Origin: Chloroflexota bacterium
Lineage (GTDB): Bacteria; Chloroflexota; Anaerolineae; UBA2200
DNA length: 64,000 nucleotides
Direction of reading: 5' to 3'
NCBI GenBank assembly: GCA_014360755.1
Contig: JACIWX010000006.1
Location: forward strand, 27,748-91,747
The notes beneath the pieces were generated by a model. That model was not told where the DNA came from and did not search any database. It was given only the letters and a program-made list of their open reading frames with translations. The stretch's first letter is position 1; each line of letters starts with the position of its first letter. Shown one piece after another: positions 4,324 through 64,000 of this stretch. A program made the translations under genes and the position numbers.

Positions 4324-4464
4324 ACGTTATGGCTAACGTTACAGTGTCATGGATGGCCATCAACGAATGTGGAACACGGATACTGGCGCAGTACATTCGT
4401 TGTCAATTCGCTGACGACTGGCTCACAGCAACTTGCCCCGGGTTAAACTACACTCGGTGCAGCA

Positions 4465-4596
4465 GGAGAGTGTTGAAAATCTTGTCACCCTGAGCGAAGC
4501 GAAGGGTCTTACGTAACTTTAGCCTATTTTCCCAAGTACTGCGAGATGCTTCACTCCGTTCAGCATGACATTGGAAGGGCTTTTTCAACACTCTCC
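4465..4596. repeat. Nested inverted-repeat element of about 132 bp, MITE-like or a structured-RNA candidate.
   Basis: Outer perfect 15-bp inverted repeat GGAGAGTGTTGAAAA (4465-4479) / TTTTCAACACTCTCC (4582-4596). Inner imperfect inverted repeat GTCACCCTGAGCGAAGCGAAGGGTC (4484-4508) versus GCTTCACTCCGTTCAGCATGAC (4548-4569). Confidence 0.4.
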
Positions 4597-4669
4597 AGCA
4601 GAGATCTTGACAAGTTAATGCACATTGTATTGGGGTGCAGTGTTGCTGTCAAAATGGAGGTTGTTCCGA

Positions 4670-5866
4670 TCACAGCCATCTAGGCAGTAGCCGTGTAAGG
4701 GCGGCGGCCAGCGCTTCTACATCGGCAGGGGAGTTATAGCCTTGAATGGAGACGCGTATAAATTGCCGCTCTTTCCAGGTGATGATCGGTACCTCAATAG
4801 CAAATGCCTCATACAGGCGCTGTTTCAGTTCCTGTGCATCACAAGGTGGCAGGGGCAATGTGACCATTTGTGCGTACCAATCGGGCGAGTCGGGGTAGAG
4901 CGGTTCTAGGCCGGTCAGTTCGCTGATGTCGTGGTAAGCCAAGGAGGCGAGTTCATGGCATCGTTGCTGCACCCGTGGCCAGTTGTGCTCTGCCTGGAAC
5001 TGGATGGCATTAGGGACGGTCAAATAGGCAGAGATGTCGCGGGTGCCCTGCCACTCCTGCTCATCTACGAAGCGCGAGGGGCCTGGTGTATCGCTCTGCC
5101 AGCCCCAACTGACAACCAACGGTTCCAACAGGTGTTGGACCTCGCGGCGGGCGAACAGGAAGGCTGACCCTTTGGGGGCGCACAGCCATTTGTGACAGTT
5201 GCCAGCGTAAAAGTCAGCACCCAGGGATTGCAGGTTAAGCGGAATCTGACCAGGAGCGTGTGCACCATCAATGACGGTGAGGATACCAGCGTTGCGCGAG
5301 CGTTGGACCAGTTCCGCGACAGGCAGGATCAACGCGGTGGGGGAGGTGATATGGCTCATGAAAAGGACACGCGTGCGTTCAGTGACCCTTGCCCACAGGG
5401 TTTCAATGACCTGCTCAGGCGATTCCAGCGGCAAGGGAAGTGGCTGGTTCATGTAGTGTGCGCCGCGACGCTGGCAGACAAAACGCCAGGTACGATCCAT
5501 GGCACCGTATTCGTGATCGGTGCTCAGCACTTCATCGCCGGGACGCAAAGGCAACGAACGGGCGACAATGTTCAGCGCCGTGGTGGCATTGGGGGCGTAC
5601 ACTAGGTCGTCTGTATCCGCACCGACAAAAGCCGCCAATGCGGTGCGGGCAGTGCGCATCAGTTCCGTGAAACGCCGGCCGAGGAATTCCACCGGTTGAC
5701 GCTCCAGTTCCAGTTGCCAGTTCTGATAGGCAGCAAAGACAGGGCGTGGGCAGGCGCCGAAAGAACCATGGTTAAGGAAGATGACATCGGGACGCAGGAG
5801 GAAGAGTTGACGGAGGTCTTGCAACTGTTCGCTGCTTTGCCCTTGAGGAGATAAAGAGTGATGCAT
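4670..5866 (-). CDS. Class V aminotransferase-fold PLP-dependent enzyme (cysteine desulfurase / isopenicillin-N epimerase-like).
   Basis: 398-aa ORF with ...AGNCHKWLCAPKGSAFLFARRE... (PLP-lysine region typical of class V aminotransferases) and FLNHGSFGACPRPV near the N-terminus. Confidence 0.85.
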   Translation of the reverse strand: MHHSLSPQGQSSEQLQDLRQLFLLRPDVIFLNHGSFGACPRPVFAAYQNWQLELERQPVEFLGRRFTELMRTARTALAAFVGADTDDLVYAPNATTALNIVARSLPLRPGDEVLSTDHEYGAMDRTWRFVCQRRGAHYMNQPLPLPLESPEQVIETLWARVTERTRVLFMSHITSPTALILPVAELVQRSRNAGILTVIDGAHAPGQIPLNLQSLGADFYAGNCHKWLCAPKGSAFLFARREVQHLLEPLVVSWGWQSDTPGPSRFVDEQEWQGTRDISAYLTVPNAIQFQAEHNWPRVQQRCHELASLAYHDISELTGLEPLYPDSPDWYAQMVTLPLPPCDAQELKQRLYEAFAIEVPIITWKERQFIRVSIQGYNSPADVEALAAALTRLLPRWL

Positions 5867-5984
5867 GGTGTTCTCCCGTGCTATTCTTAGAGATATGCGA
5901 AAAGTATAGCCTTGCCTATGGTAAAGCCAAAATGACTAGGGAGGTCTGATTTTACTGCTGAGAAGGCAGAGAACTCAGAGGGAT

Positions 5985-6050
5985 AAGAGGACGAGGGTGT
6001 AGTTCAACTCTTATCCATATTCTGCCCCCAAACTGAACTACACCCAGAGG
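5985..6050. repeat. Palindromic element: a perfect 12-bp inverted repeat flanked by direct repeats.
   Basis: AGAGGACGAGGG-TGTAGTTCA...TGAACTACA-CCCAGAGGACGAGGG. The GGGTGTAGTTCA / TGAACTACACCC inverted repeat is separated by about 25 nt. The direct repeat AGAGGACGAGGG occurs on both sides. Confidence 0.35.
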
Positions 6051-6130
6051 ACGAGGGAGGGCGCGGAGAGTTGACTAATCGGGCAGCATGGGGTAAACTT
6101 GTGCAGCGCGAAATGGCAGACATCCCGTGT

Positions 6131-6190
6131 GTCACTCTGAGCGCAGCGAAGAGCCTGCCCTGAGTACAACGAAGGGGTCTCGCGTAACTT
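6131..6190. repeat. Second copy, with an internal duplication, of the motif GTCACYCTGAGCGMAGCGAAG..GGGTCTYRCGTAACTT that is also found at 4484-4520.
   Basis: gtcactctgagcgcagcgaag[agcctgccctgagtacaacgaag]gggtctcgcgtaactt versus gtcaccctgagcgaagcgaagggtcttacgtaactt at 4484-4518. Confidence 0.4.
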
Positions 6191-6257
6191 GGAGGGAACC
6201 TGTCTCAGCTACGAGGAGATTCTTCGTCGCTTCGCTCCTCAGAATGACAAGGAGAGG

Positions 6258-7502
6258 ATGCTGAGCCTAAACATACTGGGCAAGCGGAGGCGAAAAGGAG
6301 GCATCTTGCGAGTTCGAGCCATAATTGTGTCCCTGGCCATATTGGCGGTGGCCCTGTGGCTTTTGGTGGGCTGTAGCCACACGCCATTGGTTTATGATGT
6401 GCGCATTGAACCAGATGTCATCTCACCGAATGCAGATGGCGTAGCGGATGTCGCGCGCATCACGTACCACCTTTCACGTTATGCCCGCGTCTCGATGTAT
6501 TTCCTGGATGAACAAGGTGGAAAACACGATTTTCGCACGGATGTGCCAAGGCCAAAGGGTTCCTATGAGGCGTTGTTCAGCGGGGTAATCGGAAACCGCC
6601 TGCTGCCCGATGGGCATTATCAGTGTGTGCTAGAAGCCGTGGCGGATGACGGGGAGCGGGTTGCCGTGCAAACACCGCTGACCATCCAAGGCGGGGAGCC
6701 GAATTACATCGAGATCCGCAACTTGAATATCTATCCCACTACCTTTACCCCTAACCGCGATGGCATCAATGACCGTGTAACGATTGCCTACTATTTGACG
6801 AAAGAGGCAACTAGTGTGCAAGTCTATTTGCTCAGCGAGAAGGGGGATAAGTATCCCATCCCGGAAGACAAGATTCGACCCATGGGGCAGGCAGGCAATC
6901 ATGAGCACGATTACGAAGGCGGCGTTGATTTAGGCGCTACGCCGCCCCCAGACGGAACCTATACGGTGGTGGTGGAAGCGGAGGATGCGGTGGGCAACCG
7001 CGATGTGGCACGTGGGCAGTTGACGATCGTCAATGGTGGTGTGCCCCAGGTGGAGATCGTGAACCGTGCGGCGCAATGGTCGTCCACCGTAGTGCCGCTG
7101 GGTGGCACGCTCACCTTCACCTGTACGGTGCGCAACATTGGCAAGGTAGGAGTGCGCACGAAAGGGCCAGAGCCAGGCACGCTCTATACCACGAGCGAGA
7201 ATTTCAACAGCAAGGGGTTCTATGAAGAGCCTGGCATATTCCGCATCGGTTTGGACTATGAGGGCAATAGTTCCGGGCGCATTTATCCATTTCGCTGGCA
7301 GTTGGGCCGCGATGACGAGTTGACCGTAATTGATGGGCAGAAGTACCTCATGCCCGGTCAGACTGCTACCGTGGTAGGCCATATCCAGATTATTGACAAG
7401 CCGGTGAAGGTCGCCCCCTACTATTGGCTGGGCTTGATCCATGAGCAAGTGTGGATCGTCGAAGACCGTGTGGAGCCCGTGCCTATCACCATCGGATTCT
7501 GA
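6258..7502 (+). CDS. Lipoprotein with tandem FlgD-Ig-like domains.
   Basis: The N-terminus is KRRRK followed by a hydrophobic stretch and the lipobox LLVGC. Repeated motifs ISPNADGVADVARITYHLS and TFTPNRDGINDRVTIAYYLT match the FlgD immunoglobulin-like fold. An alternative start is TTG at 6306, after AAAGGAGG. Confidence 0.75.
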   Translation: MLSLNILGKRRRKGGILRVRAIIVSLAILAVALWLLVGCSHTPLVYDVRIEPDVISPNADGVADVARITYHLSRYARVSMYFLDEQGGKHDFRTDVPRPKGSYEALFSGVIGNRLLPDGHYQCVLEAVADDGERVAVQTPLTIQGGEPNYIEIRNLNIYPTTFTPNRDGINDRVTIAYYLTKEATSVQVYLLSEKGDKYPIPEDKIRPMGQAGNHEHDYEGGVDLGATPPPDGTYTVVVEAEDAVGNRDVARGQLTIVNGGVPQVEIVNRAAQWSSTVVPLGGTLTFTCTVRNIGKVGVRTKGPEPGTLYTTSENFNSKGFYEEPGIFRIGLDYEGNSSGRIYPFRWQLGRDDELTVIDGQKYLMPGQTATVVGHIQIIDKPVKVAPYYWLGLIHEQVWIVEDRVEPVPITIGF

Positions 7503-47675: not shown

Positions 47676-48287
47676 TCAATATGACATAATAAGAATAGCC
47701 CATGCGCTGCTACTGGAATGGCTTTCGCGTAGAGTATCTAGAGAGTACAACAAGCGCTGACCTCCAATGCACAAATTGTGCAGAGGGCGAATGCAGCCCA
47801 CAGATCCGACGCGCGGATTACGAGAGCGCTGAGCCTTGTTATTGAAGCGCGAGGAGAAACGGAGCATCTCGCAGTAGCCAGGGAAAGCAATCACAACGAT
47901 GCTTACTCTTTTGCGATAGACCCAAGGTAACAAGATCCTCTCCAACGCCTTCGTATACGGATTCGCAAGAGAAGCAGTATCCATTGCCATGAAGCCGCCT
48001 ATTCCATTTACATAAATCAATCTTACAAGGGCGTCAGAATGTGCGAAAAACTAAGGGTTGAATTTCGCACTATGAATCTTATGTATACTAAAGCATGGGT
48101 TTTCCAGGAACTGCCAAGGGATTGCCAGCACCATAGGCAAGAACCTATTGGCATAGCCTCGTGGGTAAGGCACATGCCGTCCAAGTGATACGAGATACTT
48201 TGCTGCCTCTCCGTTTTTCTTCGCTTTGCTCAGGGCAATGCTCAGGATCAGGCTCAACATGACCCAAGGTACATCGCCGCGCAGCAT
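47676..48287 (-). pseudogene. Probable pseudogene: a membrane-protein ORF of about 200 codons interrupted by a single in-frame TAG, inside an AT-rich patch.
   Basis: The track ORFs 48051-48287 and 47676-48020 are in the same frame, separated by one TAG (48051-48053) and 10 sense codons. Local composition is visibly AT-richer than the flanking DNA. No confident family assignment. Confidence 0.3.
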
Positions 48288-50279: not shown

Positions 50280-50691
50280 GGGGATGACAGGTCTCGACGG
50301 GGAGGGCTGACTCGAGACTGCAAGCTGAGGTGCCTCCACCTCGTAAAACAGGGGCAAAATACAAGTGCCAACACAGCACGAATGCCGGCGTATGCTTACG
50401 CCATGGCTGCATAAAGCGGACCTAGCGTAAGCAGACGCTTTGGCCACTACGAGTGGCCACGTCCATCCCGCTCTCGCTTCCGGTGGAGTGGGGTCGGGCG
50501 TCATAGGAACCGGAGTGCGGTCGCCCCCATGCTGATAAGGGCGGCCTAAGCCCCTCCAACGAGGGGATCAGCTGGCTCCATGGCAACTCCGTCGGTTGAG
50601 GTGCATGGAGCGAGAACAAAAAGCCGACTAAGCTTGTAGGATGTCTCCAGTCGAACTCTTCGGACGCGGGTTCGATTCCCGCCATCTCCAC
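50280..50691 (+). ncRNA. ssrA: tmRNA (transfer-messenger RNA).
   Basis: 5' GGGGATGACAGGTCTCGACGGGG, a typical tmRNA 5' end. 3' GGACGCGGGTTCGATTCCCGCCATCTCCA, a T-arm plus a 7-bp acceptor stem complementary to the 5' end. Internal tag ORF GCC AAC ACA ... GCT GCA TAA encodes ANTARMPAYAYAMAA. The gene lies immediately downstream of smpB. Confidence 0.85.
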
Positions 50692-50707
50692 TGTTTGGTG
50701 TGGAGCG

Positions 50708-63422: not shown

Positions 63423-63690
63423 TGGGTTTGCTCCTTTCGCACTGTAAACGTTTCTAACATAATCATAACACATCAGAGCGAAAACGCAAACCTCCGGATG
63501 GTTTCACCACAGAACGCACAGAGGACACAGAGGGGCCAGTTTTTGGAGAGAGTTGCACCCAAGGCCGAGCACTGTCAACGGATGCAGGGAGCGGATGACA
63601 CGGATTTACCTTTGAGGTAGCATCCCTCACGAGTGCCTGCCCATCCGTTCAATCCGATCCAGAAATCCGCTGACAGGCGCACTCCAACAA

Positions 63691-63870
63691 AGAGTGATTC
63701 AAGGGTTAACGCCCTTCCTCTCAAAAAGAGTTTGTAGTGAGCGCTTCAGCGCTCATCACTAATAGAGAATGATTCAGGGGTTAACGTCCTTCCTCTCAAA
63801 AAGAGTTTGTAGTGAGCGCTTTAGCGCTCATGACTAACAGAGAGTAATTCAGGGGTTAACATCCTTCCTC
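63691..63870. repeat. 73-bp tandem repeat of about 2.4 units, each carrying two hairpins.
   Basis: Units start near 63691, 63764 and 63838 (partial). Each contains AGGGGTTAACGYCCTTCCTCT and the hairpin GTGAGCGCT-tyA-GCGCTCAT. The last partial unit overlaps the stop codon of the partial minus-strand gene at the right edge. Confidence 0.7.
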
Positions 63871-64000
63871 TTCCAGCAAGGCTTTGGCACGGGCAATTTG
63901 GAGGCGTACAGCGGCCGGCGCAGTGCCGCCGAGGACATTGCGCCGCTCCACGGCGCGATGGTAGTCAAAGACAGCGTAGAGGTCTTCCGCAAAAGCAGGA
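63856..64000 (-). CDS. C-terminal end of an unidentified gene. The 5' part lies beyond the window.
   Basis: The reverse strand reads ...PAFAEDLYAVFDYHRAVERRNVLGGTAPAAVRLQIARAKALLEEEGC* with a TAA at 63856-63858. It is stop-free to the window end. No family recognised. Confidence 0.35.
   Translation of the reverse strand, partial: PAFAEDLYAVFDYHRAVERRNVLGGTAPAAVRLQIARAKALLEEEGC

Follow-up and report, generated by a model that had tools for sequence, protein, structure and literature searches.

Two inverted-repeat elements lie 1.6 kb apart in the window analyzed here, a 64-kb stretch of contig JACIWX010000006.1 from a Chloroflexota bacterium, and both are probably dimers of a short palindromic repeat of the repetitive extragenic palindrome (REP) type. 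Their closest class is that of REPs and of REP doublets forming hairpins (REPINs), specifically the repeats tagged with CGTC or TGTC. The elements, designated element 1 (4462-4599) and element 2 (6130-6249), are near genes for an aminotransferase and a PMT_2 glycosyltransferase, and a first-pass annotation had read them as a cis-regulatory site shared by these two genes or, alternatively, as footprints of a miniature inverted-repeat transposable element (MITE) flanking the aminotransferase gene. Because the hairpin repeat that composes them is scattered through many phyla and phage contigs, we regard the elements as REP-type repeat DNA and not as a switch for two neighboring genes. We document the repeat unit, its covariation, its dimer architecture, its taxonomic spread, and its turnover at two loci.

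Two dimers of a hairpin unit

The unit is about 28 nucleotides (nt) long and has the consensus T-GTCA-YY-CUGA-GCGNAGC-GAAG-RR-UC-UC. It folds into a 5-base pair (bp) stem (A-Y-Y-C-U with A-G-R-R-U), tandem G·A/A·G pairs, a 2-bp GC or AT stem, and a GNA triloop. An unpaired TGTC tag stands on one side and a short CTC tail on the other, and the stem begins with A-T. The window was scanned with a covariance model trained exclusively on repeats from other organisms; four arms scored 30.5 bits or more, while everything else in the 64 kb scored below 16 bits. The features are as follows.

4462-4599: element 1, a complete dimer in which a locus-specific outer inverted repeat surrounds two hairpin units, tags outward
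4465-4479, plus strand: left half of the outer inverted repeat of element 1, GGAGAGTGTTGAAAA, exact, found within the window at this locus only
4582-4596, minus strand: right half of the outer inverted repeat, the exact partner of the left half
4483-4510, plus strand: unit 1L (left arm), TGTCACCCTGAGCGAAGCGAAGGGTCTT, read as TGTCA-CC-CTGA-GCGAAGC-GAAG-GG-TCTT; 45.3 bits, E value 2.7e-8
4511-4542: spacer of element 1, 32 nt between units 1L and 1R
4543-4570, minus strand: unit 1R (right arm), TGTCATGCTGAACGGAGTGAAGCATCTC, read as TGTCA-TG-CTGA-ACGGAGT-GAAG-CA-TCTC; 44.5 bits
6130-6157, plus strand: unit 2L of element 2, read as TGTCA-CT-CTGA-GCGCAGC-GAAG-AG-CCTG, with an A·C mismatch at the stem base; 30.5 bits
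6158-6176, plus strand: stuttered partial unit, CCCTGAGTACAACGAAGGG, directly after unit 2L; 12 bits, E value 1.2
6216-6249, minus strand: unit 2R of element 2, long subtype, TGTCATTCTGAGGAGCGAAGCGACGAAGAATCTC, read as TGTCA-TT-CTGA-G-GAGCGAAGCGA-C-GAAG-AA-TCTC; 31.6 bits
About 48190-48270, minus strand: degenerate remnant of a third copy, with repeated CCTGAGC stutters and a recognizable CTGAGCAAAGCGAAG core; 15.8 bits for 48219-48233

The earlier description of element 1, a perfect 15-bp outer inverted repeat enclosing an imperfect inner one, is accurate. The outer repeat is exact, is expected 0.05 times by chance, and extends in a repeat search to 18 nt at 94% complementarity (4462-4479 with 4582-4599); both inner arms were recovered by the model, and units 1R and 1L differ by compensatory changes in both stems. 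The first-pass annotation had also reported that the left arm recurs 1.6 kb away with an internal 22-nt duplication. The recurrence holds, as unit 2L, and the duplication corresponds to the stuttered partial unit at 6158-6176, of a kind that is also present in other loci. However, the right arm at 6216-6249 had been overlooked, and with it both elements are inverted-repeat dimers rather than an element and a half copy. The third copy and the hairpin nature of each arm had been missed as well. The inner segment of unit 2R (GGAGCGAAGCGAC) appears again in 5 arms of other loci, including L123, with close variants in further loci (L075, L082, and L092). Folded as RNA, element 1 reaches -56.7 kcal/mol on the plus strand (z score, -5.4) and -61.7 kcal/mol on the minus strand (z score, -6.6), and element 2 reaches -53.4 and -56.6 kcal/mol on its two strands (z scores, -2.1 and -3.4).

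A covariance analysis of structure, which had been suggested along with the original description, revealed hairpin covariation. Among arms matching the pattern GTCANNCTGAGCGNAGCGAAGNNTC, 143 of 146 viral ones show Watson-Crick complementarity at the free NN/NN positions, in 6 pair combinations, and genome arms display the same complementarity. Arms that lie outside this strict pattern, sharing only the frame GTCA..CTGA...GAAG..T, are complementary at both positions in 181 of 193 cases. Across 63 distinct arms, pairing holds in 96.8% of cells versus 86.7% in shuffles, and double-sided changes number 53 versus 13, a count of 53 being reached in 0 of 500 shuffles; slid controls were 21 to 47% paired. 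The inner pair is G-C in 51 of the 63 arms and A-U in 10, and the second stem pair is U-A in 45. Covariation across copies, therefore, supports the reading of the unit as a hairpin. GTCA is preceded by T in 248 of 293 arms (85%) and by C in 33 (11%); the search pattern required GTC, and so the invariance of GTC is no independent evidence. Longer variants carry extra layers (G-GAGCGAAGCGA-C and CCCTGA-ACGAAGT-GAAGGG), indicating that the module nests within itself.

The GCGNAGC core is known as an extraordinarily stable DNA mini-hairpin (review, PMC13037366). In Rfam, at both gathering and permissive thresholds, no family rose above noise for either element, and the matches that overlap them are at chance level (ClpQY promoter at 6135-6186, 14.6 versus 42 bits; snoRNA sR43 at 4549-4596, 12.1 versus 45 bits). 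Three familiar motifs were considered and set aside. The hammerhead core is CUGANGA...GAAA with three helices, and a hammerhead reading of CUGA...GAAG fails on an incomplete core, in that CUGA runs straight into the stem with no N-G-A. A K-turn would call for a 3-nt bulge, which is missing, and a likeness to lambda boxB was judged coincidental. Separately, a phage portal-like open reading frame (ORF) region in L017 (7918-9504) contains related hairpins with a different stem (GTCATTGCGAGC..., with peptides such as IATSPRFSGASRNDR) inside and between phage genes; given these stem variants, the family may be broader than the searched pattern.

Dimer architecture was assessed in 240 fetched loci (L001-L240) by pairing neighboring arms within 150 nt. 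Tags point outward in 98 pairs, the type that both window elements match; another 18 pairs face inward, and 39 are tandem arrangements, many of these being 24-nt stutters. The census comprises 233 solo arms, 99 pairs, and 24 larger clusters, with inter-arm spacers mostly of 4 to 47 nt, compared with 32 to 58 nt in the two window dimers. The arms of one dimer are often unlike in stem sequence, yet each remains internally complementary, which argues that the selected structure is the small hairpin and not a long duplex between arms. As single strands, dimers can form either two small hairpins or one long one.

Taxonomic spread

A strict 25-mer with 20 specified bases was used to scan IMG/VR and a 596-Gb set of species-representative genomes. 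At least 120 matches were found in the genomes, where about one is expected by chance (2 x 596e9 / 4^20), and at least 120 were found in IMG/VR. Among the genome matches listed, more than 15 phyla are represented. They include Chloroflexota (Ktedonobacteraceae, Dehalococcoidia, Chloroflexia, and Anaerolineales), Acidobacteriota, Nitrospirota, Nitrospinota, Planctomycetota, Bacteroidota, Ignavibacteria, Gemmatimonadota, Verrucomicrobiota, Omnitrophota, Saccharibacteria, Gracilibacteria, Caldisericales, Firmicutes (Lachnospiraceae and Oscillospiraceae), and Proteobacteria, with Alphaproteobacteria, Deltaproteobacteria, and Bdellovibrionales. Many of the IMG/VR contigs with the motif are related phages that have capsid, portal, and tail genes in common, and cultured-phage records yielded weak partial matches and nothing stronger. 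The motif also occurs, unannotated, on plasmids of cyanobacteria (Gloeothece, Planktothrix, and Nostoc), Hymenobacter, Phocaeicola, and Granulicella. On a Nitrospirales chromosome (L126, 3362-4195), a long tandem repeat sits beside hairpin units, and one of its frames reads AGMTEGR(A/T) many times.

The locus and its relatives

The gene order around the elements is two GT2 genes and a CHU_C-like gene, followed divergently by the aminotransferase gene and the PMT_2 glycosyltransferase gene. All of these appear in the relative L242, whose aminotransferase and CHU_C-like protein are 84% and 90% identical (the latter over 398 amino acids) to those of the window. The sequence of a second relative, L241, starts just upstream of the aminotransferase gene (86% identical protein) and shows only this gene and the glycosyltransferase gene. 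More distant aminotransferase homologs, at 78% identity or below, lack synteny and gave no information. Three promoters of the sigma-70 type are predicted and are conserved in L242, and that of the glycosyltransferase gene is also conserved in L241.

4652-4624, minus strand (L242, 7217-7245, plus strand): PMT_2 glycosyltransferase promoter, TTGACA-17-TACAAT (TAGAAT in L242)
5930-5903, minus strand (L242, 5936-5963, plus strand): aminotransferase promoter, TTGGCT-16-TATACT (TTGACT in L242)
6071-6099, plus strand (L242, 5600-5572, minus strand): CHU_C-like gene promoter, TTGACT-17-TAAACT

Element 1 falls in the predicted 5' leader of the glycosyltransferase gene, beginning about 18 nt past the inferred transcription start, and element 2 occupies roughly +24 to +143 of the inferred CHU_C-like leader. 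By homology to L242, the CHU_C-like gene starts at TTG 6306, with AAGGAGG ahead of it. Two other starts were rejected: the mechanical start at 6189 (ORF 6189-7502, plus strand, which overlaps element 2) is unsupported by L242 homology, and ATG 6259, which would set an arm against the ribosome-binding site, is out of frame. Both elements had originally been measured from minus-strand gene starts, and those distances are roughly right, but element 2 lies upstream of the predicted aminotransferase promoter, in the leader of a plus-strand gene.

In the relatives, element 1 is absent from the orthologous spacer of both L241 and L242. In its place the spacer holds a GTAG-headed palindrome, GTAGTAAGCRCTTNAGCRCT, in 1 copy in L242 and in 2 exact matches plus a degenerate third, read by eye, in L241. 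The element 2 site of L242 carries just one unit, TGTCACCCTGAGCAGAGCGAAGGGCCTC, which scores 30.4 bits and lies near +10 of the CHU_C-like leader; this is the only unit in 56 kb of the relatives' DNA. The pattern of conservation at the two orthologous sites suggests that they act as fast-turnover landing pads for the repeat, not as conserved regulatory sequence.

These comparisons undercut both of the original proposals, since the relatives keep the aminotransferase gene without element 1 and, in L242, with a single unit at the element 2 site. A cis-regulatory RNA or protein-binding site shared by the glycosyltransferase and aminotransferase genes would account for two similar elements 1.6 kb apart by these genes, both of them downstream of predicted promoters. 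It is nevertheless very improbable, because element 2 sits upstream of the aminotransferase promoter and belongs to the leader of a divergent gene, neither syntenic relative has element 1 despite retaining the promoter, and the motif is a pan-bacterial repeat, also found in phages, that matches no Rfam family. Scarcely credible is the proposal that a transposon or MITE carried in the aminotransferase gene as a cassette. The repeats do flank the gene, and the family looks mobile; however, the gene lies between the same neighbors in L242, where it has the same predicted promoter and one flank without a repeat, and beside the same downstream gene in L241, and this shared gene order indicates that it was not brought in between repeats. 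Moreover, where repeat pairs enclose ORFs at other loci, the enclosed genes are unrelated ones of housekeeping or phage type, and no direct repeats were found at the outer ends of the elements. No relative was seen in which the aminotransferase gene is missing precisely from between two units. What endures of the MITE suggestion is a dispersed family of small inverted repeats of a mobile type.

A second repeat family forms a tandem array at 63690-63880 of the window, with a period of about 75 nt. Its first two units contain the GTAG-headed palindrome GTAGTGAGCGCTT(C/T)AGCGCTCA (63734-63755 and 63809-63830), and the third unit is partial; the same palindrome family fills the spacer between the aminotransferase and glycosyltransferase genes in L241 and L242. 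The window also contains a transfer-messenger RNA gene (50280-50693, plus strand; Rfam RF00023, 161.7 bits).

Proposed spread and signs of instability of the repeat

If the elements are REP-type dimers, then their copies would spread as nonautonomous selfish DNA, the single-stranded hairpin and its conserved unpaired bases being recognized in trans by an enzyme. By analogy with REPs and the REP-associated tyrosine transposases (RAYTs), a Y1/HUH-type transposase is the obvious candidate for this enzyme.

Several observations bear on how copies come and go. The number of stuttered 5' half-units varies among related phage contigs, which suggests slippage at the hairpin as the source of tandem half-unit variation. 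Tandem runs of 2 to 4 such half-units (TGTCATTCTGAG plus about 12 to 15 nt, with a period of about 24 to 27 nt) were noted in L013 (1318-1349), L112 (about 6685), and L025 (3868-3900). Elsewhere in related phage contigs, intergenic spacers that bear the repeat are replaced wholesale by unrelated sequence, with no target duplication readable. In a phage tail- or baseplate-like gene, the unit is carried in frame as ...LTQH-CHSERSE(E/G)S-LI... in L003, L026, and L051, while homologs in L039, L009, and L017 are without an in-frame unit and that of L113 has a different repeat at the same loop. Finally, arms with exactly one non-Watson-Crick pair have G·T in 14 cases, A·C in 14, and other mismatches in 13. 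This spectrum, with no excess of G·U, suggests neutral decay after insertion and not the upkeep of an RNA structure in place.

A mobilizer was sought by all-against-all clustering of 1788 ORFs from the 240 loci, by inspection of ORFs between repeat pairs, and by a motif regular expression. The latter, which combined HUH with Y.WSS, had no match in any fetched locus or in the window.

A number of points weigh against the REP-type interpretation. The roughly 2 Mb that flanks the copies yielded neither a transposase nor any other recurrent gene, although the absence of a transposase is also what has been published for CGTC repeats. Alignments to relatives and among phage contigs revealed neither a target-site duplication nor a clean empty site. 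The core is near identical across phyla, which is unusual for REPs, since most are lineage specific, and the 64-kb window has 4 significant units plus remnants against 1 unit in 56 kb of the relatives' DNA. Single arms have a nearest-neighbor energy of -3.7 kcal/mol as DNA, no better than shuffles, and the case for the hairpin, consequently, rests on covariation. The nearest-neighbor parameters probably give no credit to sheared G·A pairs or GNA loops. Tags-outward dimers, which predominate here, are rare for CGTC repeats on one reading of the HH/TT terms in PMC3733652. Also, the element 2 site bears repeat units in two lineages, and every dimer seen in the window falls in a leader, so that a local function is conceivable.

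Transcripts, strands, and consequences

Because both dimers sit in predicted 5' leaders, they would be transcribed as long hairpins, and these may incidentally alter the mRNA stability or translation of the glycosyltransferase and CHU_C-like genes. A stronger version of this idea is that the units are host-beneficial RNA hairpins (5' or 3' stabilizers, processing sites, or attenuators) that spread mainly through their usefulness, and this we hold to be unlikely. The leader positions speak for it, including that of the L242 unit in the same CHU_C-like leader, as do the strong RNA folds of the dimers and the greater number of solo arms between convergent (23) than between divergent (5) heuristic ORFs; transcript-level roles are also favored in the REP literature (PMC3733652). 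Another 62 solo arms lie between co-directional ORFs. Of the window dimers, one lies in a co-directional spacer and one in a divergent spacer. The orientation of solo arms relative to flanking genes, however, is inconsistent among gene sets.

Heuristic ORFs: same orientation, 31; opposite, 31
ORFs with a homolog in another locus (mostly related phage contigs): same orientation, 73; opposite, 40
Long ORFs in genome loci: same orientation, 14; opposite, 29

Likewise, G·U is not favored over A·C, a consensus terminator scan (hairpin plus U tract) detected no terminator-like site at either element, element 1 is dispensable in relatives, and some copies lie in frame inside genes.

A different possibility is that the hairpin is a DNA structural or replication signal and not a mobile element, for example one in which the purine-rich strand forms an exceptionally stable GCGNAGC/tandem-GA hairpin that serves in single-stranded DNA as a site for gyrase, primase, or a recombinase. 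Such a role would suit a core equal to the stable mini-hairpin mentioned above, as well as the finding that the purine-rich motif strand coincides with the locally C-rich strand in 104 of 147 solo arms from viral loci and in 52 of 71 from genome loci, far above expectation. When skew at third codon positions (GC3 skew) was scored with one arm per locus, the bias toward the C-rich strand was 74 versus 24 in viral loci but 35 versus 23, not significant, in genome loci. A preference for one replication strand is inseparable in these data from codon usage and the relatedness of phage contigs. With this confounding, and with the uneven density between close relatives and the absence of element 1 from both of them, we consider a DNA signal improbable.

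It is doubtful that one conserved hairpin module runs across most bacterial phyla and their phages, either with its own mode of propagation or in a general, strand-specific DNA or RNA signaling role. Its own mode of propagation may be, for example, phage-borne spread together with the action of a universal host enzyme on single-stranded DNA. If a single module with its own mechanism exists, then the preference of the purine-rich strand for the C-rich strand would be a first trace of that mechanism.

For the locus itself, reading the elements as REP-type dimers is deflationary: they would be generic repeat DNA, neither a regulatory link nor the borders of a cassette. The family, by comparison, appears exceptionally widespread and is of interest for its breadth and its unusual conserved core. 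It is the source of numerous spurious short ORFs (peptides like VILSEAKDL and SFAALRMT) and puts 9-residue loops into real proteins, and annotation pipelines would gain from a model of it.

Comparison with known repeat families

The super-family of CGTC-tagged REPs, which includes Neisseria dRS3 and Rickettsia RPE-4 and RPE-6, offers the closest parallel (Di Nocera et al. 2013, PMC3733652). In these repeats, the tag is "changed to TGTC in many repeats," the stem base is A-T, and the tail is 3 nt; moreover, dimers and heterodimers are common, intragenic copies occur (Rickettsia RPE-4 and RPE-6), and there is no dedicated transposase (PMC3733652). Members of the super-family have units of 20 to 40 bp, number from tens to thousands per genome, lie mostly in intergenic DNA flanked by unidirectional or convergent ORFs, and dimerize predominantly head-to-head. 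The present family shares with them a short palindromic stem-loop (here 28 nt), an unpaired tag (here T [85%] or C [11%] before GTC), a stem that starts with A-T, a 3-nt tail, and a presence in several phyla with no dedicated transposase found. It is also alike in its frequent inverted dimers with 20- to 100-nt spacers, its heterodimers, and its apparently mostly intergenic location with an occasional in-frame intragenic copy. It differs in that the stem is broken by tandem G·A/A·G pairs (9 positions, including two G·A) and closed by a 3-nt GNA loop, whereas published CGTC families have 8 to 9 contiguous bp and loops of 4 to 5 nt. Also, the tail is CTC here and CCA there, and the range of the present family is far wider, including candidate phyla, Firmicutes, and phage contigs.

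REPINs and GTAG-REPs, which RAYTs mobilize (Nunvar 2010; Bertels and Rainey 2011), resemble the family in having a conserved tetranucleotide followed by an imperfect palindrome, and in inverted doublets that fold into one long hairpin. The core, too, is similar in certain RAYT-linked REPs: the RAYT-associated Coxiella REP GTAGGTTGGGCTGAGCTTGCGAAGCCCAAC is built as stem, GA, GC, loop, GC, GA, stem, and enterobacterial RAYT-linked REPs have a GCGNAGC core (Nunvar 2010, PMC2817692). The tag, however, is TGTC here and GTAG there, no RAYT gene was found beside the copies in the fetched loci or the window, and REPIN/RAYT systems are lineage-specific pairs, while the present family crosses phyla. The source genome also has a separate GTAG-headed palindrome, in the array at 63690-63880 described above.

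Like MITEs, the repeats are small, noncoding, inverted-repeat sequences that are dispersed and variable between relatives. Unlike MITEs, they have no visible target-site duplication, no insertion sequence turned up whose ends match and that could be a parent, and the 28-nt hairpin that is repeated can be found solo as well. By description only, the family can be likened to the small dispersed repeats of Nostocaceae attributed to Elhai et al. in 2008, which are said to be mobile repeats of 21 to 27 nt that nest in one another and have no transposase; they are reportedly limited to one cyanobacterial lineage.

The TGTC-unit sequence family is mentioned in neither PMC3733652 nor PMC2817692, and string searches of the open literature with the core DNA and the encoded peptides returned only primers and incidental sequences. 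For these reasons we file it as a new family in a known kind: it appears to be an undescribed member of the REP repeats. Its conserved tandem-GA/GNA hairpin, together with the lack of a linked transposase, bears on how REPs of the CGTC type spread.

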